Made by a program: the position numbers and the translations under genes
NCBI GenBank assembly: GCA_041738235.1
Contig: JBGSQF010000013.1
Span: 63,345-127,344 of the forward strand
DNA from: Minisyncoccia bacterium
Lineage (GTDB): Bacteria > Patescibacteriota > Minisyncoccia > Moranbacterales > GCA-2747515
Length of the DNA stretch: 64,000 nt
Direction: 5' to 3'
The notes under the pieces: generated by a model
Database searches by the model: none
Told to the model about the DNA's origin: nothing
What the model saw: only the letters and a program-made list of their open reading frames with translations
Shown here: piece after piece, positions 7,478 to 56,992 of the stretch
Position numbering within the stretch: position 1 is the first letter of the stretch
Layout of the letters: the number at the start of each line of letters is the position of its first letter

Positions 7478-7930
7478 TTATGCGAGTAAGGCTCTGACGG
7501 GGACGGCCCAGAGGAGGGCAGAGCCTGCAAAGAACGCGATCGTGGAAAGCTCCTGCATCCACCGCCACTCCTTCTGAGCGCTTCCGACGGAAACGGGGAG
7601 GCCCATAAAGAACGTGATCACGGTGGCAGTGATCATGTTGACCGTGGTTCCCATCACCTCCCCGTTGTGGGTGAAGTGGAGTAGTAGGAGCCATGGGACC
7701 AAAAATCCGAAGAGAAATCTTGGAAGGGACCCCATGAATATTCCCGTGATCTCACCCCTGGTATCTTTGAGGGTAAGCCCCTTTTTTCCCGCAGTCTGGC
7801 TGTAAATCCAGGTGAGGATCCCTAGGCTTGCAGCTAGGGCCACGAATTGTAGAGCGTAGTTAAAGGTGACGATCAAAACAGCAATCGCCATCTCTTGGAA
7901 CAGTCCGAGGAGTTGGGACAGGATGTCCAT
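7478..7930 (-). CDS. Hypothetical membrane protein (4 predicted TM helices)
   Basis: Hydrophobic segments throughout; it converges on the hpf terminator. Confidence 0.5.
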   Translation of the reverse strand: MDILSQLLGLFQEMAIAVLIVTFNYALQFVALAASLGILTWIYSQTAGKKGLTLKDTRGEITGIFMGSLPRFLFGFLVPWLLLLHFTHNGEVMGTTVNMITATVITFFMGLPVSVGSAQKEWRWMQELSTIAFFAGSALLWAVPVRALLA

Positions 7931-10860: not shown

Positions 10861-10861
10861 G

Positions 10862-11308
10862 ATGAAGGCGGTTATTGAGATTCCCAGAGGGGATGATAGA
10901 AGGAGACATCTCAGTAGGGACAAGACTGGGTTCGTTGATCTGGGGCCTCTGAGAGATGTTATTCCTGTCAATGAGGGTATCATGCCGGTTCATTACGGAT
11001 ACATTCCGGGGACGCTGAATGTCAGTGATGGTGATGAGGTTGATGTTCTGGTCTTATCAGGTGCTGAATTGAGGGTTGGACAGGAAGTTGAAATCAAGCC
11101 AATTGCTATAATCATGCGAGAAGACGGGGATGATAAGGTTGTTGCCGTGGATGGATCCAAAAGAAACCTTGAGCAGTGGTGGGAGGATGTAGCAATATCT
11201 GAGAGAGAGCTGATAGAAAAATTCTTTAGCTATCACCACAAAATTCTTTCTGTTAAGGGTGCAGAGCTTGCGGTGCATTATATACATAAAAGACGCCAGT
11301 ACATATGA
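10862..11308 (+). CDS. ppa: Inorganic pyrophosphatase (family I)
   Basis: IEIPRGDDRRRHLSRDKTGFVDLGPLRDVIPVNEGIMPVHYGYIPGTLNVSDGDEVDVLV matches the PPase active-site region. The ATG sits 1 nt after the secA stop. Confidence 0.85.
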   Translation: MKAVIEIPRGDDRRRHLSRDKTGFVDLGPLRDVIPVNEGIMPVHYGYIPGTLNVSDGDEVDVLVLSGAELRVGQEVEIKPIAIIMREDGDDKVVAVDGSKRNLEQWWEDVAISERELIEKFFSYHHKILSVKGAELAVHYIHKRRQYI

Positions 11309-11637
11309 TCACGTACGATGACTTTGAAAAGGTGGATATACGAGTAGGGGAGATTATAAAAGTAGAAGAATTTCCTGAAGCGCGAAAGCCAGCTTATAAA
11401 CTTACGATCGATTTTGGCGAGCATATCGGTGTAAAAAGATCCTCTGTTCAGGTCACAAAGCGCTATACAAGAGATGATCTTGTGGGAAAGATGGTGGTCG
11501 GTGTAGTGAACTTTCCATCAAAACAGATCGGGCCGTTCATTTCAGAAGTGCTGACATTGGGTCTTCCCGATGAAAATGGGGATGTGGCGCTTCTAGTTCC
11601 GGAAAAGAGTGTCCCGAAAGGGGGAAGGGTTTTCTAA
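11305..11637 (+). CDS. tRNA-binding protein (CsaA/Trbp111/EMAP-like OB domain)
   Basis: FEKVDIRVGEIIKVEEFPEARKPAYKLTIDFGE...QVTKRY pattern typical of Trbp111/CsaA. Confidence 0.75.
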   Translation: MITYDDFEKVDIRVGEIIKVEEFPEARKPAYKLTIDFGEHIGVKRSSVQVTKRYTRDDLVGKMVVGVVNFPSKQIGPFISEVLTLGLPDENGDVALLVPEKSVPKGGRVF

Positions 11638-11652
11638 TTGAAAAAAGTTTCT

Positions 11653-12071
11653 ATGGCCGATATAAACAAAAGCGCACTACTTATCTTTAATGAAGATAAA
11701 ACGAAATTCCTTGTGACCAGAAAATCTCCGGAAAGTGTGACGACACAATGGATCATGCCGGGTGGTAGTATCGAGGGGGGGAGACGATAGAAGGATCACT
11801 TGTTCGAGAAATACAAGAAGAACTGTCATGTGGGATCGATGTTTTTAGTCTTGAATTTGTTGGGGAGTACGAAGCGCCGGCAGCAGGACAAACTCACAAG
11901 ATCGTGAATATACAGCTCTATACGGGGACGATAATTGGTGTGCCGGTAGCCAGTTCTGAGATTGTTGATCTTACTTGGTTGGGGCGCGAGGATGTCCATA
12001 ATCAAGAAGCAAGTGAGATCATTCGAAACCATATCATACCGGAACTTATACAACGAAAAATTCTCAAGTAA
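11653..12071 (+). pseudogene. Nudix hydrolase gene interrupted by a frameshift in a G7 homopolymer (11775-11781)
   Basis: The N-terminal frame gives MADINKSALLIFNEDKTKFLVTRKSPESVTTQWIMPGGSIEGG, then hits a stop. Adding one G yields GGSIEGGETIEGSLVREIQEELSCGI (a perfect Nudix box) and continues to the stop at 12069-12071. Confidence 0.6.
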
Positions 12072-13867: not shown

Positions 13868-14353
13868 ATGCCACATATTCACACAAAGGAAGGGGAGATC
13901 GACTTTACAGCAGATGTTTTTGTAGTGCATAAGAATAGAGTGCTATTACGAATGCACGACAAGTACCGCATGTGGCTTATGGTTGGGGGGCACATTGAAA
14001 CACATGAGACACCAGAAGAAACAGCTGTTCGTGAGGCAAAAGAAGAAGTGGGACTTGATATAACGATCTGGTCTGGGGATCAAGAAACGGTTCCTGAATC
14101 TTTCTTAAATTCCCAGTTTCGATCGCTTGTTCCACCTATTTTTTTGAATGTTCATAAAATATCCGATACGCATAGACATATTTCGATGATCTATTTTGCG
14201 TTTTCCGATTCAGATGTTATTATAGAGCCAGAAACGCATGAAAAAAGCGGTGGATGTGTCTGGTTTAGTAAGGAGGAACTCCTTGCGGATAAGGATATCG
14301 ATGCACCGATAAAGTACTATGCGCTTAAGGCGTTGGAAGTTTTGGGGAGTTAA
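13868..14353 (+). CDS. Nudix hydrolase
   Basis: Nudix box VGGHIETHETPEETAVREAKEEVGL. Confidence 0.85.
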   Translation: MPHIHTKEGEIDFTADVFVVHKNRVLLRMHDKYRMWLMVGGHIETHETPEETAVREAKEEVGLDITIWSGDQETVPESFLNSQFRSLVPPIFLNVHKISDTHRHISMIYFAFSDSDVIIEPETHEKSGGCVWFSKEELLADKDIDAPIKYYALKALEVLGS

Positions 14354-14377
14354 TACTAAATTGTTGACGTAACTGCT

Positions 14378-15529
14378 ATGATCGGTACTATTGTCTTATT
14401 TTTGGTTATTTTGAGCATCTTGGTCTTTGTGCATGAGGCGGGGCATTTTATTACGGCGCGACGAAATGGTATGCGTGTGGATGAGTTTGGGTTTGGCTTT
14501 CCCCCGAGAGTGGGGGGGTTTGTAAAGAACGAAAAAACTGGAAAATGGGATTTTGTGTGGGGTAATCCTGACAAAGAGTTCGCCAATACGATCTATTCTG
14601 TGAATTGGATCCCCTTGGGAGGATTTGTTCGCATCAAGGGAGAAGATGGTTCTGGTGCGACCGATCCAGATAGTTTTGCCTCCAAATCAACATGGAAGAG
14701 GTTAAAGGTTCTGGCAGCGGGAGTAGTCATGAACTTTGTTCTGGCGTGGGTACTCTTCACTATTATTGCCATGGTCGGTTTTCCAAGAGAGGTGGACACC
14801 TCTAAGGGCATACCGGCAGGATCGTCAGTACAGATATTGAACGTTGCTGATGATACGCCGGCAAAATCCATGGGACTTCAACTGGGAGATACGGTACGTG
14901 GATTTTCTGAAGGGGGCAATATGATACCAGCAAAGTCGGTGGATACTGTAAGGAATTATATCTTGGCACATAAGGGTACATCTATTACGCTATTGATCTC
15001 AAGAGGGAAAGAGCAACTTACGTTAACAGGAACGCCTCGTGTTGAGTATAGCCCAGATCAAGGATCACTTGGTATATCTCTGGCACAAGTAGAGGTAGTA
15101 AAAACACCCTTTTGGAAAGCGCCGTGGGAAGGACTTAAACAGGTGGGCATTCTTATTTGGTTGATCCTGTCATCTTTGTGGGGATTGCTTATTGCTTTGC
15201 TTACGGGGGCTGGAGTTGCTGGGGACGTTTCTGGTCCAGTGGGTATTGCATATATGACCAAGCAAGTATCAGATCTCGGATTCCTGTACCTCTTACAGTT
15301 TATGGCCATTCTCAGCGTCAACCTCGGAGTGCTCAATATTTTGCCAATTCCAGCACTTGATGGGGGAAGGATACTATTTGTTCTCATTGAGATGATCAAA
15401 GGTTCTCCTGTGAGTCAAAAAGCAGAACAATGGATCCATTCGACTGGTTTTATAGCATTGCTCCTTTTGATGCTTGTGGTGACCGTATATGATTTTAGTC
15501 GATTCCATATATTTGATAGGTTTTTCTAG
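14378..15529 (+). CDS. rseP: RIP site-2 zinc metalloprotease RseP with PDZ domain
   Basis: HEAGHF (HExxH) in TM1, a central PDZ-like segment, and C-terminal LNILPIPALDGG. Confidence 0.85.
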   Translation: MIGTIVLFLVILSILVFVHEAGHFITARRNGMRVDEFGFGFPPRVGGFVKNEKTGKWDFVWGNPDKEFANTIYSVNWIPLGGFVRIKGEDGSGATDPDSFASKSTWKRLKVLAAGVVMNFVLAWVLFTIIAMVGFPREVDTSKGIPAGSSVQILNVADDTPAKSMGLQLGDTVRGFSEGGNMIPAKSVDTVRNYILAHKGTSITLLISRGKEQLTLTGTPRVEYSPDQGSLGISLAQVEVVKTPFWKAPWEGLKQVGILIWLILSSLWGLLIALLTGAGVAGDVSGPVGIAYMTKQVSDLGFLYLLQFMAILSVNLGVLNILPIPALDGGRILFVLIEMIKGSPVSQKAEQWIHSTGFIALLLLMLVVTVYDFSRFHIFDRFF

Positions 15530-15609
15530 TGGGTCTGTAGATCTCACAAGGTCAAGGAGGATGAGTGGAATGTTTGTATATCTCTAACTTTTTAATCTTT
15601 GCTGTTTCT

Positions 15610-16878
15610 ATGCGCCAATCAGAGCTTTTTACTAAAACGAGAAAGGATTTTCCAAAGGATGAAACAAGCTGTAACGCTCAGCTTCTTATACGTGCTGGGT
15701 ATGTGTATAAGGAAATGGCGGGAGTGTATGCTTATCTTCCACTGGGACTCCGTGTACTGCATAATATAAAGAAGATTATACGGGAAGAGATGAACTCTAT
15801 AGGAGGGCAGGAGATCATTATGACCTCGCTACAGCGCAAGGATCTATGGGAAAAGACGGATCGCTGGAGTGATGACAAAGTGGATGTTTGGTTCAAGTCG
15901 AAACTCAAAAATGGTGTGGATGTTGGTTTTGGTTGGTCGCACGAAGAGCAGATCACAGAGATGATGCATTACTATGTTTCTGGGTTTCGTGATCTTCCTG
16001 TTTCGGTATATCAATTTCAAACGAAACTTCGTAACGAGCTTCGTGCCAAAAGTGGTATTATGCGTGGACGTGAGTTTTTGATGAAGGATCTGTATTCGTA
16101 TTCACGAAATGATAAAGAACATGACATTTTTTATCAACAGGTTATTGATGCGTATCTACGAATTTTTAGGCGTGTTGGACTTGGAGATGACACTTTTCTT
16201 ACTTTTGCTTCCGGGGGTGCATTTACACAGTTTAGTCATGAATTTCAGACGATCACAGACGCTGGAGAGGATATCGTATATCTTGATCGAAAAAGAAAAC
16301 TTGCAATAAATAAAGAGGTACTGACTGATAAAGTGCTGGAGCAACTGGATGTAAAAAGGGAGGATCTCGAAGAGGTAAAGACTTCTGAGGTGGGCAACAT
16401 ATTCAGTTTTGGGGGAAAGAAATGTGAGCAGTTGGGGCTTTATTTTATGGATGAACGGGGAGTGAAACAGCCTGTTGTTCTTGGATCGTACGGTATCGGA
16501 ATTACTCGTCTTATGGGGGTGATCGTAGAAAAGTTTCATGACGAAAGGGGTATTATTTGGCCTGAGACAGTAGCGCCTTATCAGGTGCATCTTCTCAAGA
16601 TCACCTCGGGGGGCAAGCAGTCAACGAGTACGGATAAGCAGGCGGAAGAGGTGTACCAAAAACTGAAACGTTCAAATATATGGGTTCTCTATGATGATCG
16701 CGAAGGAGTGAGCGCGGGAGAAAAATTTGCTGATGCCGACCTTTTAGGTTTGCCTACCCGTATTGTGGTAAGTGATCGATCTCTTGAAGCGGGAGGTGTT
16801 GAAGTAAAGAGGCGAACAGAAAAGGAGTCCAAGATAATGTCGGTTGAGGATTTTATCAAACAATTTGCCAATAACTAG
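15610..16878 (+). CDS. proS: Prolyl-tRNA synthetase (short bacterial form lacking the editing insertion)
   Basis: MRQSELFTKTRKDFPKDETSCNAQLLIRAGYV is the ProS N-terminal signature; class II motifs 2/3 and a C-terminal anticodon-binding domain follow. Confidence 0.85.
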   Translation: MRQSELFTKTRKDFPKDETSCNAQLLIRAGYVYKEMAGVYAYLPLGLRVLHNIKKIIREEMNSIGGQEIIMTSLQRKDLWEKTDRWSDDKVDVWFKSKLKNGVDVGFGWSHEEQITEMMHYYVSGFRDLPVSVYQFQTKLRNELRAKSGIMRGREFLMKDLYSYSRNDKEHDIFYQQVIDAYLRIFRRVGLGDDTFLTFASGGAFTQFSHEFQTITDAGEDIVYLDRKRKLAINKEVLTDKVLEQLDVKREDLEEVKTSEVGNIFSFGGKKCEQLGLYFMDERGVKQPVVLGSYGIGITRLMGVIVEKFHDERGIIWPETVAPYQVHLLKITSGGKQSTSTDKQAEEVYQKLKRSNIWVLYDDREGVSAGEKFADADLLGLPTRIVVSDRSLEAGGVEVKRRTEKESKIMSVEDFIKQFANN

Positions 16879-26391: not shown

Positions 26392-26465
26392 AGCGGGGTA
26401 GAGCAGCCAGGCAGCTCGTCGGGCTCATAACCCGGAGGTCGTGGGTTCGAATCCCACCCCCGCAA
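26392..26465 (+). tRNA. Initiator tRNA-Met (CAU)
   Basis: Cloverleaf AGCGGGG-TA-GAGC...GCTC; anticodon arm with three G-C pairs (GGG-CTCATAA-CCC); A1:A72 mismatch; T-arm GTGGG-TTCGAAT-CCCAC; very close to E. coli tRNA-fMet; no encoded CCA. Confidence 0.8.
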
Positions 26466-26512
26466 CAAAATGTGACAATTAAAGAGGTTGGGTGAAGAAC
26501 CTGTTTGTTCTT

Positions 26513-26586
26513 GGCAGGGTAGCTCAGTTGGTTAGAGCGTGGGACTCATAAGCCCGAGGTCGAGAGTTCGAATCTCTCCCCTGCTA
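26513..26586 (+). tRNA. tRNA with CAU anticodon (elongator Met or lysidine-modified Ile2)
   Basis: GGCAGGG-TA-GCTC-AGTTGGTTA-GAGC, anticodon loop CTCATAA, T-arm GAGAG-TTCGAAT-CTCTC, acceptor CCCTGCT; one A31:G39 mismatch in the anticodon stem. Confidence 0.75.
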
Positions 26587-26609
26587 CAAAGAGGAGAGAG
26601 GATATAATA

Positions 26610-27026
26610 GTGATTTACGACTCAAGTATGTCTTTTGACAAGGGACCAAGAAAAGAAACGGTAAGTGGACTGTATGTACACGGTCTCGCCGACAGTAGAA
26701 AGTCTGTGGGTGCTGAGGATCGGGAAGGAAAAAAGCTTTCCGTAACGGAGCAGGTACTGGCCTCATTTAGAAATAATGAGCTCCCATCATTGGATGGAGC
26801 CCGGGTTGCTGTTGATCACATGTTGGCTCATTCCGGTATTAGTGAGAAGGACTTTTTGGAGTTTGCTACGACACATCAGGAGTCGATGAAAGAGTTTATA
26901 GAACAAGCATTACGGATCATGAGTCGAATTGATGGAGGAAGAGAGAAGGATTCCAAGGTGTTATTTGAACGATTGAGAAATACGATACCCTCCTCTGAGG
27001 AAGTTGATTATAGAAAGGCAGCCTAG
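26610..27026 (+). CDS. Hypothetical soluble protein
   Basis: GTG start preceded by a strong GAGGAGAGAGGA RBS; no recognisable motif. Confidence 0.5.
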   Translation: MIYDSSMSFDKGPRKETVSGLYVHGLADSRKSVGAEDREGKKLSVTEQVLASFRNNELPSLDGARVAVDHMLAHSGISEKDFLEFATTHQESMKEFIEQALRIMSRIDGGREKDSKVLFERLRNTIPSSEEVDYRKAA

Positions 27027-27048
27027 AATAGAAGTGTTTTGAAAATTT

Positions 27049-27125
27049 GGACCGGTAGCTCAGTTGGTTACCCGCCCGTACCGAACGGACTCGGTACGTT
27101 CGGGCGGGGATCATCGCCCTGTCAC
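27049..27125 (+). pseudogene. Degenerate partial copy of tRNA-Asp (5' half to the anticodon loop) with a 39-nt hairpin replacing part of the D-arm
   Basis: GGACCGGTAGCTCAGTTGGTTA is identical to positions 1-22 of the tRNA-Asp at 27379. A perfect hairpin follows at 27071-27109 (CCCGCCCG...CGGGCGGG). Then ATCGCCCTGTCAC matches the anticodon-stem 5' strand plus loop, and the copy ends there. Confidence 0.6.
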
Positions 27126-27136
27126 TGTATGGTTCT

Positions 27137-27373
27137 ATGTACACCGTTTATGTTTTGCAAGATGATTCTGGAAAGTTATACAAAGGTATGACGAGTGATC
27201 TGAACAGAAGATTTGCAGAACATAGCCGGGGTAAAACGAAGACAACGAGCAAAATGAAAGATATTTTCGTTGTCTACACTGAAGAATACGTTACTCGGCT
27301 GGAAGCGCGCGCAAGAGAGAAATACCTCAAGACAGCTGCAGGTAGAAGATTTTTGAAGAAAAAGTTGCAATAA
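27137..27373 (+). CDS. GIY-YIG nuclease family protein (small UPF0213/YhbQ-like)
   Basis: YTVYVLQDDSGKLYKGMTSDLNRRFAEH is the GIY-YIG catalytic motif (GIY...YxG...R...E...H/N). The ORF fills the 253-bp gap between the partial and intact tRNA-Asp copies. Confidence 0.8.
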   Translation: MYTVYVLQDDSGKLYKGMTSDLNRRFAEHSRGKTKTTSKMKDIFVVYTEEYVTRLEARAREKYLKTAAGRRFLKKKLQ

Positions 27374-27378
27374 TATTT

Positions 27379-27452
27379 GGACCGGTAGCTCAGTTGGTTA
27401 GAGCATCGCCCTGTCACGGCGAGGGTCGCGAGTTCGAGTCTCGTCCGGTCCG
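27379..27452 (+). tRNA. tRNA-Asp (GUC)
   Basis: GGACCGG-TA-GCTC-AGTTGGTTA-GAGC-A-TCGCC-CTGTCAC-GGCGA-GGGTC-GCGAG-TTCGAGT-CTCGT-CCGGTCC-G; canonical cloverleaf; no encoded CCA. Confidence 0.9.
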
Positions 27453-27462
27453 CAGAAATCTA

Positions 27463-32980: not shown

Positions 32981-33160
32981 AAGAAGAATAGGATAAAGGA
33001 CATTATTTTTTCGGGGTCTTGTAAGGGCTATATATGTGAAAGCCAACAGTGGGTTGCTGTCGGCTTTATGTTGACGGGTCTTTTTGGGGCCAACCGAGCT
33101 CGGCTGGTCCTATGCGGTTCTGCGATTTCTTTCTATCGGGTCGGTTCAATACCGCCTCGA

Positions 33161-33649
33161 TTATCTGGGAGGCTTTCCTGGCCCGCCACCACCGGGACCT
33201 CTTTGTGGGGGTCCAGCGTGGGGTCGTTGAGGTTGGGGCCTTTGCTGGGGTGGTCTGAAGCCACCTCCGCCGGGACCTCGCTGTGGCCGATGTTGTGCCG
33301 GTGGCGGTCCCCCGGGAGGAACTCTCCGTGGGGGTCTCGGTCTGAGTTCCAAACCAGGAGGGCGATGTTCTGGGCCTACTCCGATCTGGATTCCTGGTCC
33401 AGACGAAACCAAGCGATCCTGGACGACGTTGATGGTCAACGCCTTCCTGATTCGTTTCTTGCTGATGTAGACCTGATCCGTTCCATTAATCGGGTAGTAA
33501 TACAGCCCGTCCTTCTGGACGTAGGTGTCCCCCGGATTGATGGTGTATGCTACCGTCTCCCTGACGGCATACACGCAACCAGTGAGCACCATGACGGTCA
33601 ATACGAGGATTGCGATCGCCAGACCCCTGGCGGTGTTATTCGTCTGCAT
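33161..33649 (-). CDS. Lipoprotein with a Pro/Gly/Arg-rich C-terminal tail (high-GC island)
   Basis: Signal peptide with lipobox LTGC, GGGGGAGAG RBS, and a tail of PGGGG/PQRP repeats. Confidence 0.5.
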   Translation of the reverse strand: MQTNNTARGLAIAILVLTVMVLTGCVYAVRETVAYTINPGDTYVQKDGLYYYPINGTDQVYISKKRIRKALTINVVQDRLVSSGPGIQIGVGPEHRPPGLELRPRPPRRVPPGGPPPAQHRPQRGPGGGGFRPPQQRPQPQRPHAGPPQRGPGGGGPGKPPR

Positions 33650-33858
33650 CGTTTTCTCTCCCCCGGTTCTTCCGGTTTTGTTGATGCACGCGAACTATTA
33701 GCCATAAAGATGAGTTTGTCAAGGGTAGGCAGTATGTTTTGTAAGTTACTTTTGGGAGGGATATCTTGACGGAAATACAAAGTTGGTGTTATTTTATGGT
33801 ATCGTCCAGCTCTGGGCGATCGTGATAATTCACGACACTTTTTGTTTAGGGGGTTTTT

Positions 33859-34179
33859 ATGGACGGTTCGACGGGTATGGCTGTTGGGATCGATCGGCGG
33901 CCCTGGCAACGGGATCGGCACACCTTCTTCCAGATGGAGGCGGGGTGCATCGGAGCCAAGAACATTACACTTCGGTTCTCCTATGTTCCTAAGGGCGGGG
34001 GTGAGGAAAGCCGGACCACTCTGGGCTTCCGATGGGTCGAGGAAGATCTCACCGCCACGGATGGGACCCGAGTGAAGGTTTCGGGTCTCTATGTTGAAGG
34101 GCACAGCGGGGTCATGGAACCCCTCAATGAGAAGGCGTTTCCGGCAAACGGGTACGTCCTCGTCGAGAAGGGGGACTAG
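33859..34179 (+). CDS. Hypothetical protein (high-GC island)
   Basis: AGGGGG RBS 7 nt upstream, and TTGACG at -35 distance. Confidence 0.4.
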   Translation: MDGSTGMAVGIDRRPWQRDRHTFFQMEAGCIGAKNITLRFSYVPKGGGEESRTTLGFRWVEEDLTATDGTRVKVSGLYVEGHSGVMEPLNEKAFPANGYVLVEKGD

Positions 34180-49855: not shown

Positions 49856-50635
49856 ATGTCGATATTTTCCCTTATGAAAGCCAATAAAGCGAATATGGTA
49901 CTTTCGGGGTTGGCAGTCGCAACGGCGGTATTTTTGGGATTGGTGTTCCTGGCGAATGATTATTCTGTGCAAACCGATTATTTGGTGATCCAAGGATCGG
50001 CAGACAAGCAGGACTTCTATACGCTTTCTAAGAGTGTTGAGTATTCAGGAAATATTCTTAAGGAAGCGATCGCGAGTGACTTATTCTTCTCTGAGGCCGC
50101 TAACACCAAATACTTTGACGCTTCTGTATTTCCGAGTGATGAGCTTGAAAAGTTGAAGGAGTGGCGCAAGTCGATCAAGGTGACGCAACGATCCGGCGCA
50201 GGTATCTTGGAGGTCACCGTTAAGCGTCGTACGCAATCTGAAGCATTAGGCATCGCACGCGCCGTTTCTGATGTGCTGATTCAAAAAAATAATCTTTTTC
50301 GATCCGGTACGCCGGAGAGTCTTACGATCAAAACCATATCTGGACCGATCGTAGAACAGAACCCAACTATCAAACAGTTGATCACTGGATCGGTCGCAGG
50401 GTTTATTCTTGGAGTAGCGCTCTTTCTTCTTTGGAAGTTGTCGCGAGGACCAACCGTCTCAAAGAAATCGGATCAACTGTTCTTCTCTTCTGAGAGAGAA
50501 TTGGATGAGTATCGTAATCGTTTGCAGGTATCATTAGAAATCTCAAAGGGACCGTTCGATGAAAGTTTAGTAGGGGAGGGTAATGCGGTTCCTGAGAATT
50601 TGCCACACTTGACCCAAACGGGGTATACTCAGTAG
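49856..50635 (+). CDS. Wzz/chain-length-determinant-like protein (polysaccharide co-polymerase topology)
   Basis: N-terminal and near-C-terminal TM helices flanking a periplasmic domain; ILEVTVKRRTQSEALGIARAVSDVLI resembles the Wzz N-terminal motif. Confidence 0.55.
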   Translation: MSIFSLMKANKANMVLSGLAVATAVFLGLVFLANDYSVQTDYLVIQGSADKQDFYTLSKSVEYSGNILKEAIASDLFFSEAANTKYFDASVFPSDELEKLKEWRKSIKVTQRSGAGILEVTVKRRTQSEALGIARAVSDVLIQKNNLFRSGTPESLTIKTISGPIVEQNPTIKQLITGSVAGFILGVALFLLWKLSRGPTVSKKSDQLFFSSERELDEYRNRLQVSLEISKGPFDESLVGEGNAVPENLPHLTQTGYTQ

Positions 50636-50781
50636 TTCTTAAAAAAACGCATAGTGGTATATCTGCGAGAAGGAGAGAAGAGGATTCTCTCTTTCCGCGG
50701 GCATAGCCCCGAAGGTTCGTTAACAACTTCTTTCTTTTTCGTAAAATCAGAAGACCCCCAATGGGGGCAGGAGGCATAACC

Positions 50782-51528
50782 ATGGATAAAACCATGGCGA
50801 AACTCATTAGCATCATCTTCGCCGGGCTGGTCCTGGTGGGGTGTGCGACGACTCCCCCCGGGGAGACGTTGGGTTTGAAGGGCGAGGCGATGGAACGCCT
50901 TGCCAACGCGACGACGTTCGTGGCTCCGCCGCCGGTCGAAACGGCGCGGGGCTTCGAGATCGCTCTGCCACAGGATGTGGCACGAGAAATGGGGTGCAAG
51001 GAGTACCCCACGATAGACCACTCGACCGTTTCGGTGTGTCGGAAGTCATTTCGCGCGCGCCTGGACGGTTTGGAGGCGTCTGCTTACCCCTTCGGGGGGA
51101 AGTGGTATGTCTTCATTGCTGGGAAACCCTCTCGGGTGGAGATCCTCTCCGCTCGGGGGGCGAGGCATAACGCTTCGGTCGTCGGTGAGATCGGTCGCTC
51201 CCAAGTAACCGAAATCTATGCCGACATCGGCGCGACATTCCCGTCCGTTTCCGGGGTCATTCCCGGGACGGCGGGGACGCGCCTGCTTTATGGGCAGGAT
51301 GCCCTGAATGCGCTCCGCGTCCCGTCGCTTGTCGATTGGAAGGAGCGTGCGGCGGTGTGTGGGTTGGGGTCCGTGTCGTCCACTGAGCTAATCGGTGTGG
51401 CGACCGGGAACCCCTTGCCCGCAGTTGGGAAGGTTTTGCAGGGCGTTTGTGCCCTGCGCCAAGAACCCCGGCTCCTCGTGGGGTCGGGATCCGCAACACA
51501 ACCCGGGGCAACCCCCCAGGAGAAGTAA
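50782..51528 (+). CDS. Lipoprotein, hypothetical (high-GC island)
   Basis: AGGAGG RBS 7 nt upstream; signal peptide with LVGC lipobox; about 60% GC. Confidence 0.55.
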   Translation: MDKTMAKLISIIFAGLVLVGCATTPPGETLGLKGEAMERLANATTFVAPPPVETARGFEIALPQDVAREMGCKEYPTIDHSTVSVCRKSFRARLDGLEASAYPFGGKWYVFIAGKPSRVEILSARGARHNASVVGEIGRSQVTEIYADIGATFPSVSGVIPGTAGTRLLYGQDALNALRVPSLVDWKERAAVCGLGSVSSTELIGVATGNPLPAVGKVLQGVCALRQEPRLLVGSGSATQPGATPQEK

Positions 51529-51529
51529 G

Positions 51530-53269
51530 ATGAAACGCTTGAATGCGTTCTTCGTCCTCGCGGGGCTCGTCCTCGCGTTGACGATCACTACCACCCCCGC
51601 GGAGGCGGGGAGCTACACGGTGTCCAAGTCGGACTACCGTGGATTGTCCTCTATCGGGCGCAAGCTCGGTGTGGATTGGCTTTCGATCGCGAAGACGAAC
51701 GGGATTAAACCCCCGTATCGGATTCGGGTCGGTCAGGTGCTCACCATTCCGGAAGGCGAAAGCCAACCGGCGGTGGCACAGACCGAAGCAACCCCCGCCA
51801 AGGCCCCCGTGGCCACGGCGGAGATCCCTGCCTCTCCTGCTGGCGTCCGCCAGTGGAAGAAGGTAGGTGGAGACCCCCTCCTTCCGCTCCGTATGCGGAA
51901 GGCTTGGCACAAGGCCGAGGAGCTTCGGCTCACCTCGGAGCAAGCCAACCGGCTGGCTCAATTTGGGCTCTCTGAGTCCCAGATCGAGCAGGTCCGCAAG
52001 GATCTGGCTGGCGGCCAGTGCCAAGCGACGGCTCGTCCCGTAGGGTATCCTTGGGACGGCATGGCGATGGGGCGTGGCAATTGGAACGCCACAGAGAATG
52101 CAACTGGCGACAGCATCATGGTCTGGGCTTGCCCGGAACAGGATGACATACAGGTCGACATCGCGATGGGCTGTGGCAATGTGGCGTGGAAACGTCATGC
52201 GCCCAAGCCCGTAACGCCAACCCCGCAGGAGAAAAAGGCGGGGCTCGAGTGTGAGATGGTCGGAGCCTTGTGGGCGCAGGTCGGAGGGCATGGTGAGTCG
52301 GGTTCGGCCCGGTTCAGCTGTCTTGTCCCGGTCGGCGATCACTGGAAGGTCGGACCGTCTGTTGGTATGTCTGGGTCTCGGTTCGGCAATGGCGAGTGGG
52401 TAGAGGTATCCAACTTCGTCGGCGCCGGTATCGAGGCGCGGGGATCCGATATCGCCGGCCTGGACGCCGTCGAATTCGTGGTTCTCGTGGGGCAAGGGTC
52501 GGCACGTGGTTACTCCACCGATGGAATGGTGGAAAAGCTCAAAGCGTCCGGTATGGACGCTCGTCTCGCGATCCAACTCCGGAAGCGTTTCGCGATCTCC
52601 CCTCAAACGGGAGTGACCGTGCGCTTTATGCCCTGGGTGGACGTGCCACTCACGGGCGCTTCGACCGACATCCTCTGGAAGGGGGGTAAAGTTGGAGAGG
52701 AGCGCGGAAGGCATGTGGTCGTAGGAGCGATCCTGCGGCTTGAGATGGATCGGGCTGACTGGAACGTCAAGCCTGAGCTTACCCTGGGCGTCTGGCACAT
52801 CTCGGATGTGCAAGAGCCGATTGGCGCGAAGATCCTCCTCGGTGTCGCCACGAAGGATGACGTGTGGCGTATCGGAGCGGGCGTACAGTTCCCCAATCCC
52901 CACTGGATAGTGGAGGTTGAGTGGAATCCTGGTCTGGGATGGCTTCATGCCAATACCCAGGTTGCCACCACGGCACTGCTTGCGGGGTCAACACCCACGG
53001 AGCAGTACCTCGGCGTCAAGGCCTCTAAATCGGCCAAAACGTCGCAACCCACAACCGCAACCCCCGCCAAGGCCGAGACGCAAGTCAAGGTCAAGGCGGA
53101 GAAATCTGGAAGTAGCCCGTTTGGTTGGGCTGCCGATATCCAGACAGCAGCACAGTCCACCAGTTCCGGAGCTTCTGGAAATGGCGGACACACAACTTCC
53201 TTAACCTCAACCCCGACAGGATCGTCGGGTTCGACAGTCGACGCGGCCCTCGGGCTGTTCGCCGGCTGA
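51530..53269 (+). CDS. Secreted LysM-domain protein (high-GC island)
   Basis: ATG 1 nt after the preceding stop, a signal peptide MKRLNAFFVLAGLVLALTITTTPAEA, LysM YTVSKSDYRGLSSIGRKLGVDWLSIAKTNGIKPPYRIRVGQVLTIP, and a Thr/Ser-rich tail. Confidence 0.6.
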   Translation: MKRLNAFFVLAGLVLALTITTTPAEAGSYTVSKSDYRGLSSIGRKLGVDWLSIAKTNGIKPPYRIRVGQVLTIPEGESQPAVAQTEATPAKAPVATAEIPASPAGVRQWKKVGGDPLLPLRMRKAWHKAEELRLTSEQANRLAQFGLSESQIEQVRKDLAGGQCQATARPVGYPWDGMAMGRGNWNATENATGDSIMVWACPEQDDIQVDIAMGCGNVAWKRHAPKPVTPTPQEKKAGLECEMVGALWAQVGGHGESGSARFSCLVPVGDHWKVGPSVGMSGSRFGNGEWVEVSNFVGAGIEARGSDIAGLDAVEFVVLVGQGSARGYSTDGMVEKLKASGMDARLAIQLRKRFAISPQTGVTVRFMPWVDVPLTGASTDILWKGGKVGEERGRHVVVGAILRLEMDRADWNVKPELTLGVWHISDVQEPIGAKILLGVATKDDVWRIGAGVQFPNPHWIVEVEWNPGLGWLHANTQVATTALLAGSTPTEQYLGVKASKSAKTSQPTTATPAKAETQVKVKAEKSGSSPFGWAADIQTAAQSTSSGASGNGGHTTSLTSTPTGSSGSTVDAALGLFAG

Positions 53270-53870
53270 GCACAAGGAAGTACTGAAGTAACCACCCCCT
53301 CATAGGAGAGGGGAGACGTCAGTCGAAGAACTGACGAAGGAGTAGTGAAACGCAACACCGCCCGTCTGGAAGACCGGCGAGATAAGTAAAGGCGAGAACA
53401 CTCCGCCTTTCGCCCCTGAGAAATCAAGGGTTCGGGCACGGTGCCCAAGAGTGCTCCCTTTTCGGTTGTGAAAAGGGTACCCGTTCCAGTGAGGACGGTT
53501 GAAAAAGGAAAGAAGGGATCGTAGCATATCCCTTGACAAGCCTGTCAAAGTATGCTAGGATTGAACATTAAATAAGGAAAGAACCTTGTATCTATGGACG
53601 CCCAGGAAAGAGTATTTGTAAATCGGTCGACACGATTTACTTATGTTCTTTCCTTGGGCATTAGCTTTAGCTTTTGATATTTTGTGTTCAGTATTTTGTA
53701 TCTTCTTATGAGGGTGCAAATAGGGAATACAAGAGAGTGAGTTTTTCGAGAGATCAACGGATATACGCATGAAGCGCGTGTCCATCGTCCCCCGAAAAGG
53801 AGGTCGAGAATAGTTACAGGAGTTTTTTAAAACCATGGCCATTTGAGGGAAACCCCCTCGGGAGAACGCC

Positions 53871-54224
53871 ATGAACCGCAAGTACTTGATCCTGATCGCC
53901 GCCCTGATCGCCACCGCCGCCAGTACCACCGCCATCGCCGGCAAGTACGACGGGGCCTCCTGGGGCACCGCCTCGAACAATGTCCAGGTCATCAACTACG
54001 ACCCGGTCCGGTGTGAGGTGTGCCGGGCCGAAAACGGCCAGGCTACCATGACCGAGTGCAACAGCCCCTCGGCCATGCAGGCCGGCCTACCGTACGTCAT
54101 CTATTGCGGGGGCGGGGTCTGGGGGGAGGCTGGCTCCGCGCCCGGGACGACCCGCGTCGGACCCGGCGGACATGTCGGCTCGTTCCGGGCCGGCCAGAAG
54201 GACTACTGGACGGTCAAGCAGTAA
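53871..54224 (+). CDS. Small secreted Cys-containing protein (high-GC island)
   Basis: Signal peptide MNRKYLILIAALIATAASTTAIAG and six Cys residues. Confidence 0.5.
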   Translation: MNRKYLILIAALIATAASTTAIAGKYDGASWGTASNNVQVINYDPVRCEVCRAENGQATMTECNSPSAMQAGLPYVIYCGGGVWGEAGSAPGTTRVGPGGHVGSFRAGQKDYWTVKQ

Positions 54225-54409
54225 CGCTGCCGAACCGCCCCTAGAAGTCCGAGACCGTCGGAGAGATTCAGAATGTCAATGCAAAGCGCAACGCGCTTCT
54301 GCCACGACTTCTGTCTCCTCTCCGACGGTCTTTAAATTGTTTCTCAAAATTCCGATCTTGCCAGAAACAATTAACCCCGCTGTATGGCGGGGTATTCTCT
54401 TTTGTGAAT

Positions 54410-55762
54410 TTATTTTTCTTCTGCCGTTCTTCCATAAACGCTTAGCGCCCCCCCGATCATTGCCCAGAGGATCCACTGCACCATAGTAGAGCGCAGTACG
54501 TGGTCGGTTGCACTGAGAAGAAGAAGTGAAATTGTAAGACAAAGAAGAATAAGGAAGGTATCGTGCTCAACCGGTGTTTTGGAAGCTTTCCAATTTTTAT
54601 AGAGGATGAAAATAGGAGCGAAGGAAAAGAAGAGAAAAACAGCGAGTCCAACCACACCTCCTTCTACGAAGGAACGGACGAATTCATTATGTGGGGCATT
54701 GACGACAAAACGGATCCCACGAACGCTTTCGGCGATGATCTCGAATGTACCAAGTCCGTACCCAAGGAGCGTATTTTGGTCGGCGATCGTTTTATGGATG
54801 GTGTCATTCCAAATGGTTATGCGCCACGCGAGAGAACTGGAAGGACCGAGGTTCAGTCCTTCGGTGATCCGTCCCTGTATGCTGGGTAAGGCAAGGAACA
54901 GTACGATAGGAATAAGTAAAAGAGCCGGGAGTATCTTGAAGTATTTGACCGAGGCGATAAGACCAAGAAAGAGAAAAAATGTTGCCCAAGCTGCCCGAGC
55001 GTAGGTCATTATAAGGATCGCAGTAACGGTAAAGAAGGCAACAAGAGAAATGTTTTTTGCTCTTTCTTTCGTGTACGTAAAGAACATAAGTAGAAGCGCC
55101 GCAAGGACCACCACTAGATAGAGGGCAAATATGTTGGGATGAGCAAATGTTCCATAGATGCGCGGAACCGCAAAAGCATCGTCGACATAACCAATATTGA
55201 AGATAAACTGATACATGGCTGTGGCAATGGGAATGATCGCCGATAAAGAGGAGATCAGCAGAAGTTTGAAAAATCTTTCTTTGGTGTTGATGACAAAGTA
55301 AGAAAGGAGGAATATAAAGAGTATTGAAAAGAGACGAAGGATCTCATAGAGCGTTTGGGAAAAACTGACCGAATAGAGAAGTGTTCCTGTGCCCCATAGA
55401 AGCAGTACCAGGAACGGATAAAAAAGAGGGACATTCAAGACCTTCTGTATTCGGGGGGCGAGATAGAGGATCCCAAGAAATACCGTAAGTAAGCCAAATG
55501 CTTGGGCCACTGTAATGATCCGGGTTGGGTCAAAAGGCATTGAAAAGTTGAGTATCTCAGAGAGTCGATCAAGGGAGGGTCGAATGAAGATCAGAGAAAA
55601 AAGAAGGAGATAGGGAGAATAGAGCAAAAGAAAAAATGACCAAGGAAATAGTCCGGCGAGCACGGATCCAGTAATTGACAATCCCAAGAAAAGAGAGACG
55701 ATAATAAGACCGACTGAAGCGATGAGGGTTATGATAAAAATTCGGGAAAATCGAGCATTCAT
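54410..55762 (-). CDS. O-antigen ligase / Wzy-type polymerase family membrane protein
   Basis: More than 10 TM helices; Wzy_C-like YGTFAHPNIFALYL and a periplasmic loop NAPHNEFV. Confidence 0.8.
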   Translation of the reverse strand: MNARFSRIFIITLIASVGLIIVSLFLGLSITGSVLAGLFPWSFFLLLYSPYLLLFSLIFIRPSLDRLSEILNFSMPFDPTRIITVAQAFGLLTVFLGILYLAPRIQKVLNVPLFYPFLVLLLWGTGTLLYSVSFSQTLYEILRLFSILFIFLLSYFVINTKERFFKLLLISSLSAIIPIATAMYQFIFNIGYVDDAFAVPRIYGTFAHPNIFALYLVVVLAALLLMFFTYTKERAKNISLVAFFTVTAILIMTYARAAWATFFLFLGLIASVKYFKILPALLLIPIVLFLALPSIQGRITEGLNLGPSSSLAWRITIWNDTIHKTIADQNTLLGYGLGTFEIIAESVRGIRFVVNAPHNEFVRSFVEGGVVGLAVFLFFSFAPIFILYKNWKASKTPVEHDTFLILLCLTISLLLLSATDHVLRSTMVQWILWAMIGGALSVYGRTAEEK

Positions 55763-55768
55763 AGTATA

Positions 55769-56992
55769 ATGGAGAGTATGAAAATATTACTGGTCAACAA
55801 ATATCACTATGTAAAGGGTGGTGCCGAACGGGCCTATTTTGATACGGCTCGTGTTCTAGAAGATCACGGACACGAAGTGGCATTTTTTTCTATGCATCAT
55901 CCGATGAACGTGAAAACTCGATGGTCGAAGTACTTTATCGACTCGGTCGATTATCACGATAATCCAAGCATACGCCAAAAAGTGAGAATTGTGAAGAATA
56001 TCCTTTGGAATAGACAGGCACAAGAAAATCTCAGGTCTCTGATTGAGGAATTCCAACCTGACGTAGCGCATCTCCATAATGTTTACCACCAGATCTCTCC
56101 TTCGATCATCGCTACTCTCAAAAGGCATCGCGTACCTGTGGTGATGACACTTCATGACTATAAGCTTATTTGTCCCAACTACTCGATGTATGTTCGAGGT
56201 CGTATTTGGGAAGGCGGCGCGTTACGTTGCGCTCTCGATCGATGTGTGCAGGATTCATATTCAAAAAGTCTTGTATGTGCCGTGGAGTCGATGTTTCATC
56301 AATTGATCGGGATATATGACCGGGTAGATGCTTATATTGCACCCAGTCAGTTTCTAAAGGAAAAATTTAGGGAGCATGGTTTTCAGAAGAAGATCACTCA
56401 TATCGCACAGCCTTTGTTCAAGGAGGATCTTCTTGAAAGTGTTCCATTCGATGTTTCGGCGCCAATCCTTTTTGCTGGGAGATTGTCTATCGAGAAAGGG
56501 GTTGAAACGATCATTCGAGCGATGGCTTTATGTCCCGGTGAAAAACTGGAGATCGCTGGATCTGGTCCTGAAGAAAGAGCCCTGAAGGAACTTGTCCGAT
56601 CTTTAGGGGTTCAAGAACGAGTGTCCTTTTTGGGACACCTTTTGGGTAAAGATCTTCGCCCAAGGATCCAGAAAGCCAAAGCCGTTATCATAACATCGGT
56701 GTGGTTTGAGAATATGCCGTATGCACTTTTGGAGGCGTTGGGCGCAGGAAAAGTAGTGATCGCTTCTCGTATTGGAGGAATGACTGAACGTATCGTTGAT
56801 GGTGAGAACGGTTTTCTTTTCACAGCGGGGGATGTGGAAGATCTTGCGCATACCATAGAGAAGATAAGCCCAAAGAATGTGGAAGATATTCAATACAAAG
56901 CGAGACAAAGCGTTCAAGATATCTCTCCAGAGGAGTATTACAAAAAGGTACTCTCTGTGTACCAAAAGGTTGTGGGGAAAAATAAGAAATAA
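55769..56992 (+). CDS. Glycosyltransferase family 4
   Basis: GT-B fold; FAGRLSIEKGVETIIRAM (EX7E region); the alternative start 55778 (MKILLV) follows GGAGAG. Confidence 0.9.
   Translation: MESMKILLVNKYHYVKGGAERAYFDTARVLEDHGHEVAFFSMHHPMNVKTRWSKYFIDSVDYHDNPSIRQKVRIVKNILWNRQAQENLRSLIEEFQPDVAHLHNVYHQISPSIIATLKRHRVPVVMTLHDYKLICPNYSMYVRGRIWEGGALRCALDRCVQDSYSKSLVCAVESMFHQLIGIYDRVDAYIAPSQFLKEKFREHGFQKKITHIAQPLFKEDLLESVPFDVSAPILFAGRLSIEKGVETIIRAMALCPGEKLEIAGSGPEERALKELVRSLGVQERVSFLGHLLGKDLRPRIQKAKAVIITSVWFENMPYALLEALGAGKVVIASRIGGMTERIVDGENGFLFTAGDVEDLAHTIEKISPKNVEDIQYKARQSVQDISPEEYYKKVLSVYQKVVGKNKK

Follow-up and report, generated by a model that had tools for sequence, protein, structure and literature searches.

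A GC-rich module of exported proteins in a surface-glycan locus

The stretch of contig JBGSQF010000013.1 analysed here (64,000 nucleotides, referred to as the window), from a Minisyncoccia bacterium of the Moranbacterales, contains a locus with features of the Wzx/Wzy type, namely a Wzy_C gene (Pfam E 7.8e-13) and GT4 glycosyltransferases identified with NCBIfam models. Within this locus lies an island (50760-54230) of strongly raised guanine-plus-cytosine (GC) content, which encodes a lipoprotein, a LysM protein with a predicted beta-barrel and a small Cys-containing secreted protein. A first-pass annotation of the sequence had proposed that the island was acquired horizontally or that the assembly is chimeric. 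As a whole, the evidence is best explained if the island is native to, and has long resided in, a surface-glycan locus of the Wzy type in Moranbacteria-like Patescibacteria, a reading that we consider probable.

Table 1 Genes and elements in and around the GC-rich island (positions in the window)
Feature	Positions	Strand	Basis or remark
CpsC/Wzz-like polysaccharide co-polymerase candidate, left flank	49856-50635	+	two terminal transmembrane segments, GC 0.46
P1, promoter-like TTAACA-16-TAAAAT, in the AT-rich gap before the lipoprotein gene	50720-50747	+	consensus scan alone
Lipoprotein gene, 248 aa, lipobox LVGC	50782-51528	+	open reading frame, 12-member alignment
Antisense open reading frame, 563 aa	51257-52948	-	codon-aligned antisense frame of the LysM gene
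LysM beta-barrel protein (predicted), 579 aa	51530-53269	+	open reading frame, Pfam LysM, predicted fold
GC-rich, hairpin-dense 3' region	53270-53500	+	RNA fold; only in the window and L007
P2, TTGACA-17-TAGGAT with TG extension	53533-53561	+	conserved in relatives
Conserved 20-bp leader hairpin	53745-53796	+	RNAalifold, covariation
Small secreted protein, 117 aa, signal peptide, 4 Cys, CxxC	53871-54224	+	open reading frame, orthologues
Terminator-like hairpin, bidirectional, separating the small gene from the convergent Wzy_C gene	54374-54393		sequence scan
Wzy_C-family polymerase/ligase, normal GC, right flank	54410-55762	-	Pfam Wzy_C
GT4 glycosyltransferase, divergent from the Wzy_C gene	55769-56992	+	NCBIfam GT4 matches; syntenic in relatives

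The three products bear the expected export features (a lipobox, signal peptides and a LysM domain), in agreement with the first-pass annotation. The best start of the lipoprotein gene is preceded by AGGAGG 7 nt upstream and gives an N-terminus in line with the orthologues, and its stop codon lies one base from the start of the LysM gene, so that the two genes are translationally coupled. The module would comprise two transcription units, with P1 driving the lipoprotein gene and the coupled LysM gene, and P2 driving a structured leader and the gene for the small secreted protein. The long open reading frame (ORF) antisense to the LysM gene had been regarded as an artefact, and our analysis bears this out. 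Stops in its frame arise solely from sense TTA, CTA and TCA codons, and the frame is open because the LysM gene has only three of these in 579 codons; in relatives it is open for just 122-411 codons. With the frame broken in relatives, we rejected the ORF as a real gene and, on the same ground, an overlapping antisense gene as the cause of the high GC.

We confirmed that the reported GC jump is real. The island has a GC of 0.601, in comparison to a mean of 0.446 (standard deviation 0.016, maximum 0.477) for 108 other 3.47-kb windows of the 64 kb. In 400-nt windows, GC was 0.45 at 50.4-50.8 kb, had reached 0.63 by 50.8 kb and stayed at 0.58-0.64 up to 53.4 kb. It then fell to 0.445 at 53.4-53.8 kb, or 44% when taken over 53.45-53.85 kb, where the promoter and leader of the small gene lie, and rose again to 0.62-0.65 at 53.8-54.4 kb before returning to 0.46. 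Counted from 50.6 kb, the profile up to 53.4 kb spans 0.55-0.64, and on either side of the island it was 0.40-0.49. The excess is present at both second codon positions (GC2 0.52-0.53 versus 0.33-0.39 in the flanks) and third codon positions (GC3 0.70-0.73 versus 0.37-0.49), and in low-GC relatives GC3 was likewise 0.42-0.62 in the island versus 0.17-0.35 in the flanks, GC2 in relatives being shifted in the same direction. The lipoprotein gene has a GC of 0.63 and a GC3 of 0.73, and the small-protein gene has the highest GC3 of the module in all lineages, ranging from 0.53 to 0.83 across them. The island proteins are rich in Gly and Ala (23.7% together, versus 13.9% in the flanks) and Trp (2.5% versus 0.9%), with Pro and Thr also raised and Lys, Glu, Ile, Phe and Leu lowered. 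Amino-acid content accounts for part of the island's GC; for the rest, codons ending in C and codons ending in G are both generally favoured. Once normalised for GC, the dinucleotide signature is native, the island's distance from the rest of the window (delta* 0.045) being that of other windows (0.041 +/- 0.013, maximum 0.073).

A second, smaller GC-rich patch (33068-34179, GC 0.56-0.60) contains, on the minus strand at 33161-33649, a gene for a 162-aa lipoprotein with lipobox LTGC and a Pro/Gly/Arg-rich tail, and at 33859-34179 a divergent 106-aa ORF with a GC3 of 0.71; an Rfam search of 32.8-34.5 kb at permissive E-values returned nothing credible. This second lipoprotein patch hints that several envelope genes of this genome could share a raised GC. 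A 150-aa hydrophobic ORF on the minus strand at 7478-7930 also has a GC3 of 0.69, far higher than that of its neighbours.

Conservation and origin of the module

A protein search with the LysM protein returned eight close relatives at 56-69% identity, two of which are labelled Candidatus Moranbacteria or Moraniibacteriota by NCBI, a phylum within the Patescibacteria/Parcubacteria group. The family is narrow: an exhaustive HMMER search of 1.84 billion representatives yielded just 21 clusters of the LysM-barrel family, and a profile-based word search added only a few members. Scans of genome contigs and metagenome contigs for relatives found none, and the diverse alignment was too variable for patterns. 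The genomic context of the relatives, numbered L001 to L016 below, was obtained through exact-protein look-ups.

The module was found in 11 of 11 related loci (L002/L003, L004, L005, L006, L007, L009, L010, L011, L013, L014 and L016). Their shared order is a protein of ~230-250 aa with two transmembrane (TM) segments, a lipoprotein of ~230-250 aa, the LysM protein and the small secreted protein, in relatives usually an M48 peptidase, and then Wzy_C in convergent and GT4 in divergent orientation, with order and strand varying between assemblies. The Wzz-like gene precedes the module at every locus examined, and Wzy_C and GT4 adjoin it at every locus that extends that far. Four more distant members (24-54% identity) have the same module adjoining Wzy_C and GT4. 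With the distant members included, the module is thus a constant part of such loci in this bacterial group.

The raised GC accompanies the module in most of these loci, and in each close relative the three genes are 12-18 GC points richer than their surroundings. Over L002-L010 taken together, the island spans 0.48-0.66 GC and the flanks 0.30-0.49. In L007, the closest relative, the island has a GC of 0.57-0.66 and the flanks 0.34-0.49; the corresponding values are 0.48-0.56 and 0.34-0.44 in L009 and L010, and 0.61-0.65 and 0.38-0.54 in the distant L016, whereas in L002 to L006 an island GC of 0.48-0.57 compares with a locus mean of 0.36-0.40. The first-pass annotation had named the occurrence of the same island at similar GC in relatives as the observation that would tell against its own explanations, and such relatives are what we found.

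These data bear directly on the proposal of a chimeric assembly, in which a high-GC fragment of another organism would have been joined into a Moranbacteria contig. The source is metagenome-assembled, the composition changes abruptly, and the Logan contig L001 breaks at both island edges. Nevertheless, nine independent assemblies from different samples have the same gene order, with a GC step of 12-18 points over the flanks in most, and the misassembly explanation therefore fails. They include L002/L003, two independent assemblies of which one is the closed 1.19-Mb Moraniibacteriota genome CP065011.1, with its locus reproduced in an independent Logan assembly. The same type of junction from the Wzz-like gene to the lipoprotein gene, with a GC step, is spanned in L002/L003, L004-L007, L009, L010 and L016; the Wzy and GT4 genes of the window share the allele class of its barrel gene; and promoter and terminator elements are placed at the junctions. 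We consider a chimera scarcely conceivable. L001 itself (SRR28170474, 2605 bp, ~50680-53284) comes from an independent short-read assembly of the same sample, is 100% identical to the window and contains only the lipoprotein and LysM genes. Its ending at both GC boundaries may fit branching of the assembly graph at the cassette edges, i.e. co-existing alleles.

Recent acquisition of the three genes as a surface module, not yet ameliorated, from a donor of high GC that lies beyond the clade would explain the 15-point GC step with edges sharp at gene boundaries and the restriction of L001 to the GC-rich part, and polysaccharide loci are a class known for gene exchange. However, the same module occupies the same place in every related locus recovered and its divergence matches that of the flanks: identity to the close relatives is 48-68% for the island proteins and 46-60% for the flanks (Wzz-like, Wzy and GT4), which indicates that both sets diverged together. 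The native dinucleotide signature and the balanced AT-to-GC and GC-to-AT substitutions described below also speak against import, as does the lack of an integrase, attachment repeats or a tRNA. A search for flanking repeats around the island gave only short, chance-level matches, no tRNA lies beside it, the nearest being 23 kb off, and PHROGs searches returned LysM-type matches only, with no mobility or phage-type genes. (Two tRNA-Met genes and one tRNA-Asp gene at 26392-27453 are the sole Rfam-level RNA genes of the window at gathering thresholds.) A tblastn search of the family against phages and plasmids gave no match, and the four of the 21 clusters with context lie in the same kind of locus. 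We regard a recent foreign import as highly improbable.

Horizontal exchange nevertheless appears to have a part in the history of the locus, as allele exchange within the group. L016 has the flanks closest to the window of all relatives (Wzz-like 78%, second GT4 71%, DUF4012 protein 65%, NosD-like 62%), but its module is distant (barrel 31%, lipoprotein 44%, Wzy 29% identity, and a small protein without detectable similarity). In the relatives L002-L010 the Wzz-like protein is more distant (51-59%), yet the barrels are 56-59% identical to that of the window. Similarly, L004 and L010 are sisters for Wzz-like and GT4, with a synonymous divergence (dS) of 0.27-0.30, but not for the lipoprotein, barrel, small-protein and Wzy genes (dS 0.46-0.67). 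Wzy divergence follows the barrel allele class, and the Wzy_C gene is probably part of the variable cassette. Since the relations of module and Wzy conflict with those of the flanks, both seem to act as the changeable core of a locus of the serotype kind, whose deep allele classes are swapped between related lineages. They would be exchanged among lineages as divergent alleles because they are surface-exposed. The earlier suggestion of horizontal acquisition thus appears partly right, in the sense of exchange among related lineages; its foreign high-GC donor does not agree with the co-divergence with the flanks, the native signature, the compositional equilibrium or the missing mobility genes.

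The arrangement resembles Wzy-dependent capsule and O-antigen loci, in which conserved flanks (here co-polymerase-like on one side, and NosD-like, GT4 and DUF4012 on the other) surround a divergent stretch that includes Wzy. It differs from them in that the variable stretch also encodes three exported proteins of markedly high GC; in classical serotype cassettes, GC is usually lower than in the genome that carries them.

Several further differences among the loci were observed. An M48 peptidase gene lies between the small gene and Wzy in L002 (13419-14306), L004 (7454-8347), L005 (12741-13634), L006 (12688-13581) and L010 (4355-5248), and is 94-97% conserved among the four closest relatives; the gene is absent in L016 and in the window, where the interval measures 185 nt (54225-54409). 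Just beyond GT4, on the minus strand, L004 (11200-11544), L005 (16518-16904), L006 (16501-16869) and L010 (8112-8459) carry an ORF of 114-128 aa without a Pfam match, with a GC of 0.47-0.51 and a GC3 of 0.46-0.52 in genomes of 39-40% GC. In L006, a JGI contig, the barrel gene is apparently frameshifted near its 3' end (10001-11700), and within 13960-16305 Wzy is apparently truncated and GT4 split in two, which reflects either assembly errors or a decaying cassette.

The exported proteins and the leader of the small gene

The LysM protein begins with a signal peptide (residues 1-26, ending AEA), followed by the LysM domain (residues 29-74, 51614-51751, Pfam E 2.6e-7), a helical and Cys-rich beta domain (residues ~107-222), a predicted barrel of long antiparallel strands (residues 242-465, 52253-52924), a helix (residues 467-484) and a Ser/Thr-rich tail (residues 485-579, ~95 residues) with a conserved end. 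The tail is of low complexity, with a predicted local distance difference test score (pLDDT) below 50 and no Pfam domain. An AF2 model of the full protein built with eight close sequences was unusable (pLDDT 42), whereas a model of residues 100-509 built with 18 sequences down to 25% identity reached a pLDDT of 83.8, and above 90 across the barrel. Using Foldseek with this barrel model, we obtained matches with an E of 6e-7, and the best 50 were all outer-membrane (OM) barrels. The strands alternate between a hydrophobic face and a polar or glycine-rich face. Sub-threshold matches to PF03797, the autotransporter beta-domain, were found over the last strands in 7 of the 18 members (E 0.0017-0.1; best score 16.8 bits against a gathering threshold of 26). 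Apart from LysM, Pfam and NCBIfam gave no sequence family for this protein, and a PDB sequence search with the barrel-family profile gave no match. On the strength of the structural model, the protein is predicted to combine a peptidoglycan-binding domain with a ~12-stranded OM-type beta-barrel, a helix and a Ser/Thr tail.

Inverse autotransporters are defined by LysM, then a 12-stranded barrel, then an exported segment at the C-terminus (PMC4943183), and the predicted domain order here is the same. The LysM protein shares the signal peptide and LysM domain with these type Ve proteins (intimin, invasin, YeeJ), but its 'passenger' is a ~95-residue disordered Ser/Thr tail instead of Ig-like domains, LysM and the predicted barrel are separated by an additional helical, Cys-rich domain, and its host is a Patescibacterium, not a proteobacterium, in which the gene belongs to a glycan locus with dedicated lipoprotein and small-protein partners. 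The inverse-autotransporter barrel model (Pfam IAT_beta/invasin_beta) matched none of the 18 members at E<=5, nor the full protein at E<=0.1. Because of this missing match, the sub-threshold autotransporter score and the lack of a folded passenger, membership of the family is unsupported, and we describe the protein as built like an inverse autotransporter, not as one of them. In classical autotransporters (PF03797; BrkA, Hbp, NalP, EspP, AIDA-I) the barrel is C-terminal to the passenger and the helix precedes it, whereas here the helix comes after the barrel, no passenger is placed N-terminal to the barrel, and all scores lie under the Pfam threshold. The union of a wall-binding domain and a beta-barrel in one polypeptide is also found in tethers of the OmpM/OmpA type between OM and peptidoglycan; there the wall-binding domain is SLH or OmpA_C, not LysM, and we found no sequence relationship. 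OmpM, with an SLH domain and a barrel, has been proposed as the ancestral tether in Terrabacteria (PMC10628300).

Ancient transfer of an OM barrel module from a diderm high-GC bacterium to a forebear of these Patescibacteria, after which constraint would have kept the composition fixed, is one way in which such a protein could have arisen. The barrel fold is otherwise typical of diderm outer membranes, the family is narrow, and inverse autotransporters are patchily distributed, with horizontal transfer proposed for them (PMC4943183). No sequence relative outside the LysM-barrel family was detectable, however, and synonymous sites are saturated between lineages, so that an original composition cannot survive without an active force; origin and maintenance are separate questions. 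We judge this scenario decidedly unlikely.

Such a barrel was not to be expected: Patescibacteria are described as having no outer membrane and are generally scored as monoderm, from few observations (PMC8871954, PMC12102498). In our literature searches, no paper was found that names Moranbacteria together with LysM, and the results ranked highest for Patescibacteria combined with autotransporter, porin and outer membrane protein did not mention Patescibacteria. In our proposed model, LysM would tether the barrel to peptidoglycan, and the barrel would be placed in a layer beyond the wall, accompanied by the lipoprotein and small-protein partners. Alternatively, the predicted barrel may not be embedded in a membrane of the cell; it may be a beta-rich domain that is soluble or associated with the wall, or a secreted pore-former that targets a host membrane. 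This would agree with the reported lack of an outer membrane (PMC12102498, PMC8871954), with the episymbiotic life of many Patescibacteria (PMC12102498), and with the variable cassette, which would fit a host-interaction protein. Against it, the strong structural matches are all integral OM barrels, the strands have a hydrophobic face of the lipid-facing type and a polar face, and the N-terminal LysM and partner lipoprotein argue for anchoring in the cell's own envelope. We consider this alternative rather unlikely.

Across the 12 aligned sequences of the lipoprotein, a two-domain family, the lipobox Cys is invariant and two halves are conserved. In L013 (9136-9992) the N- and C-terminal halves are two adjacent genes, each with its own signal peptide and lipobox. 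Pfam gave nothing consistent for this family, and a PDB profile search gave no match. The small protein, with a CxxC and two further Cys, shows 57-68% identity within its allele class and is very divergent in other classes, where a few Trp, Pro and Gly positions are shared. The Wzz-like protein had no Pfam Wzz match; it matched NCBIfam TIGR01006 at E 4.1e-5, with 23 bits against a cut-off of 296, and its two-TM topology fits CpsC/Wzz.

Linkage to Wzy_C and GT4, together with allele co-variation with Wzy, suggests that the module proteins work with the glycan machinery. The barrel might act with the co-polymerase-like and Wzy_C proteins in glycan export or anchoring, as a channel or an anchor; alternatively, the Ser/Thr tail itself could be the displayed, possibly glycosylated product. 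Wzy_C-domain enzymes include the protein O-oligosaccharyltransferases PglL and PilO.

Between the LysM and small-protein genes, the first-pass annotation had described about 600 nt of GC-rich structured noncoding DNA. This description holds for the ~230 nt at 53270-53500, where both hairpins that it had named are present (53318-53335 and 53434-53446), but not for 53500-53870, which is at or below genome-level GC and comprises the promoter and 5' leader of the small gene. The GC-rich part is a row of hairpins, several with GNRA-like loops, with a fold z-score of -3.0 in the window. The homologous stretch of L007 has a z-score of -6.3, with hairpin positions kept and sequence changed, and the other relatives are without it. 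Rfam searches of 50.6-54.45 kb at permissive E-values returned nothing credible and no match for 53270-53500. The stretch could be a 3' stabiliser or a terminator array, two sequences being too few to say.

The promoter-like site noted earlier at P2 is real and conserved, with the full consensus TTGACA-17-TATAAT in relatives, and its -35 box lies inside the palindrome TTGACA-N4-TGTCAA, which is unique in the window. It precedes a leader of ~310 nt (53562-53870) that contains the conserved hairpin of Table 1. In the alignment, 93% of the hairpin cells are paired, in comparison to at most 59% when partners are slid, and 14 cells show double changes versus 3.9 in shuffles. A covariance model built from eight loci detected non-training copies directly before small secreted-protein genes, namely the second small gene of L002 (42 bits) and the small gene of the distant L016 cassette (37 bits). 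With these copies added, 13 pairs show compensatory changes versus 4.5 in shuffles, a count that leans in favour of the model because the alignment was fitted to it. A short second hairpin abuts the Shine-Dalgarno sequence of the small gene. The leader looks like a dedicated, putative cis-regulatory element and a new leader RNA motif.

Second copies of the motif occur in L002 (12564-13096, 42 bits) and L009 (6439-6941, 26 bits) before a second small gene (136 and 133 aa, respectively), so that the unit of leader and small gene has been duplicated in that lineage. In the 5' half of the leader, the window (53660-53745), L007 (~7560-7660) and L016 (11950-12190) have a common block, TTTTGTATCTTCT...GGGTGCAAAT...GGAATACAAG, which in L007 and L016 is followed by a purine-rich GAAT/GGAA repeat tract that other relatives lack. 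The outgroup cassettes of L011 (3880-4030), L014 (6840-7000) and L013 (12010-12180) carry a different conserved leader before the small gene, with a stem CCCCCTTAACAGAGC...GAGATCTCTGCGGAGGG that has compensatory changes in L013; a hairpin and a U-tract come after the stem. These leaders may represent a second RNA motif of a related kind.

Maintenance of the raised GC and implications

To polarise synonymous third-position changes by parsimony, we used the quartet L004 + L010 versus L005 + L006. In the island genes, 76 AT-to-GC and 70 GC-to-AT changes were counted, against ~52 and 115 expected under the flank rates. The implied equilibrium GC3 is 0.57 for the island, whose current value is 0.55, and 0.35 for the flanks by the same method. 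As the two counts are balanced, the island sits at its own compositional equilibrium and is not decaying toward genome composition. The dS of the island is 0.4-0.8 among close relatives, similar to the flanks, and saturated in deep pairs; with ordinary dS no embedded element freezes the sequence, and we rejected such an element, constraining synonymous sites, as the explanation. We also rejected translational optimisation as in highly expressed genes. At two-fold codons, C/(C+T) is 0.47-0.60 in the island, 0.22-0.29 in the flanks and 0.10 in ribosomal-protein genes (0.47, 0.22 and 0.10, respectively, in L005 alone), and since ribosomal-protein genes favour the opposite codons, the bias is not the usual codon optimisation. 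The high GC is thus a gene-specific property that has long been maintained.

GC3 would be upheld either by selection on the coding sequence or mRNA, for instance by way of mRNA stability or of non-preferred codons that slow the decoding of exported proteins, or else by biased gene conversion. Under GC-biased gene conversion at a recombination hot spot, the exchange of surface alleles would lift GC without selection on GC itself; this competes with selection as the cause of GC3 maintenance only. In its favour, gene trees disagree inside the locus (L004-L010, dS 0.27-0.30 versus 0.46-0.67), allele classes disagree with the flanks, C- and G-ending codons are shifted alike and at equilibrium, and the noncoding 53270-53500 is GC-rich too. 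On the other hand, Wzy and GT4 are equally mosaic yet have ordinary GC, and the 400-nt promoter and leader between two GC-rich genes has genome-level GC, which indicates that the effect tracks coding sequences and not the region. We consider gene conversion unlikely as the cause, and selection on the coding sequences or mRNAs of the exported proteins may fit the gene-by-gene GC boundaries.

Several observations weigh against the overall account. In the distant L011, L013 and L014, the lipoprotein and barrel genes are just 3-5 GC points over the genome, so that the strong offset is not universal, although the small gene nonetheless has a GC3 of 0.60-0.67. The right junction of the window, with the small gene beside Wzy and no M48 peptidase gene, is not duplicated in other assemblies. 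The parsimony polarisation can be biased, and it assumed a quartet topology that recombination may violate. The barrel relies on structure prediction from only 18 sequences, every barrel-family sequence match is below its curated threshold, and the strand number is provisional, DSSP giving 13 strand segments against the ~12-stranded prediction. The literature reports no outer membrane in Patescibacteria (PMC12102498, PMC8871954). Synteny alone underlies the proposed link to glycan export or display, and the functions of all three proteins are predicted ones.

The cassette is a natural case of gene-specific GC in equilibrium, 15-30 GC3 points over the genome across saturating divergence, and could be used to separate codon or mRNA selection from biased gene conversion. 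For genome scanning, it implies that a sharp GC step is insufficient as evidence of horizontal transfer or misassembly.

In a broader and tentative reading, which we hold to be possible rather than probable, Moranbacteria-lineage Patescibacteria make a peptidoglycan-tethered OM-type barrel with dedicated partners as the variable surface core of a glycan locus, and a force at work on coding sequences keeps the GC of these envelope genes apart from that of the genome. Both the barrel and where it sits are predictions. If they are true, either these 'monoderm' ultra-small bacteria would have a lipid-containing layer outside the wall, or the assembly and use of such barrels would require neither a classical outer membrane nor BAM, a host membrane being one possible site. 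The family of proteins joining LysM to an OM-type barrel, with its lipoprotein partner in a glycan locus, provides a concrete protein to seek in Patescibacteria envelopes.

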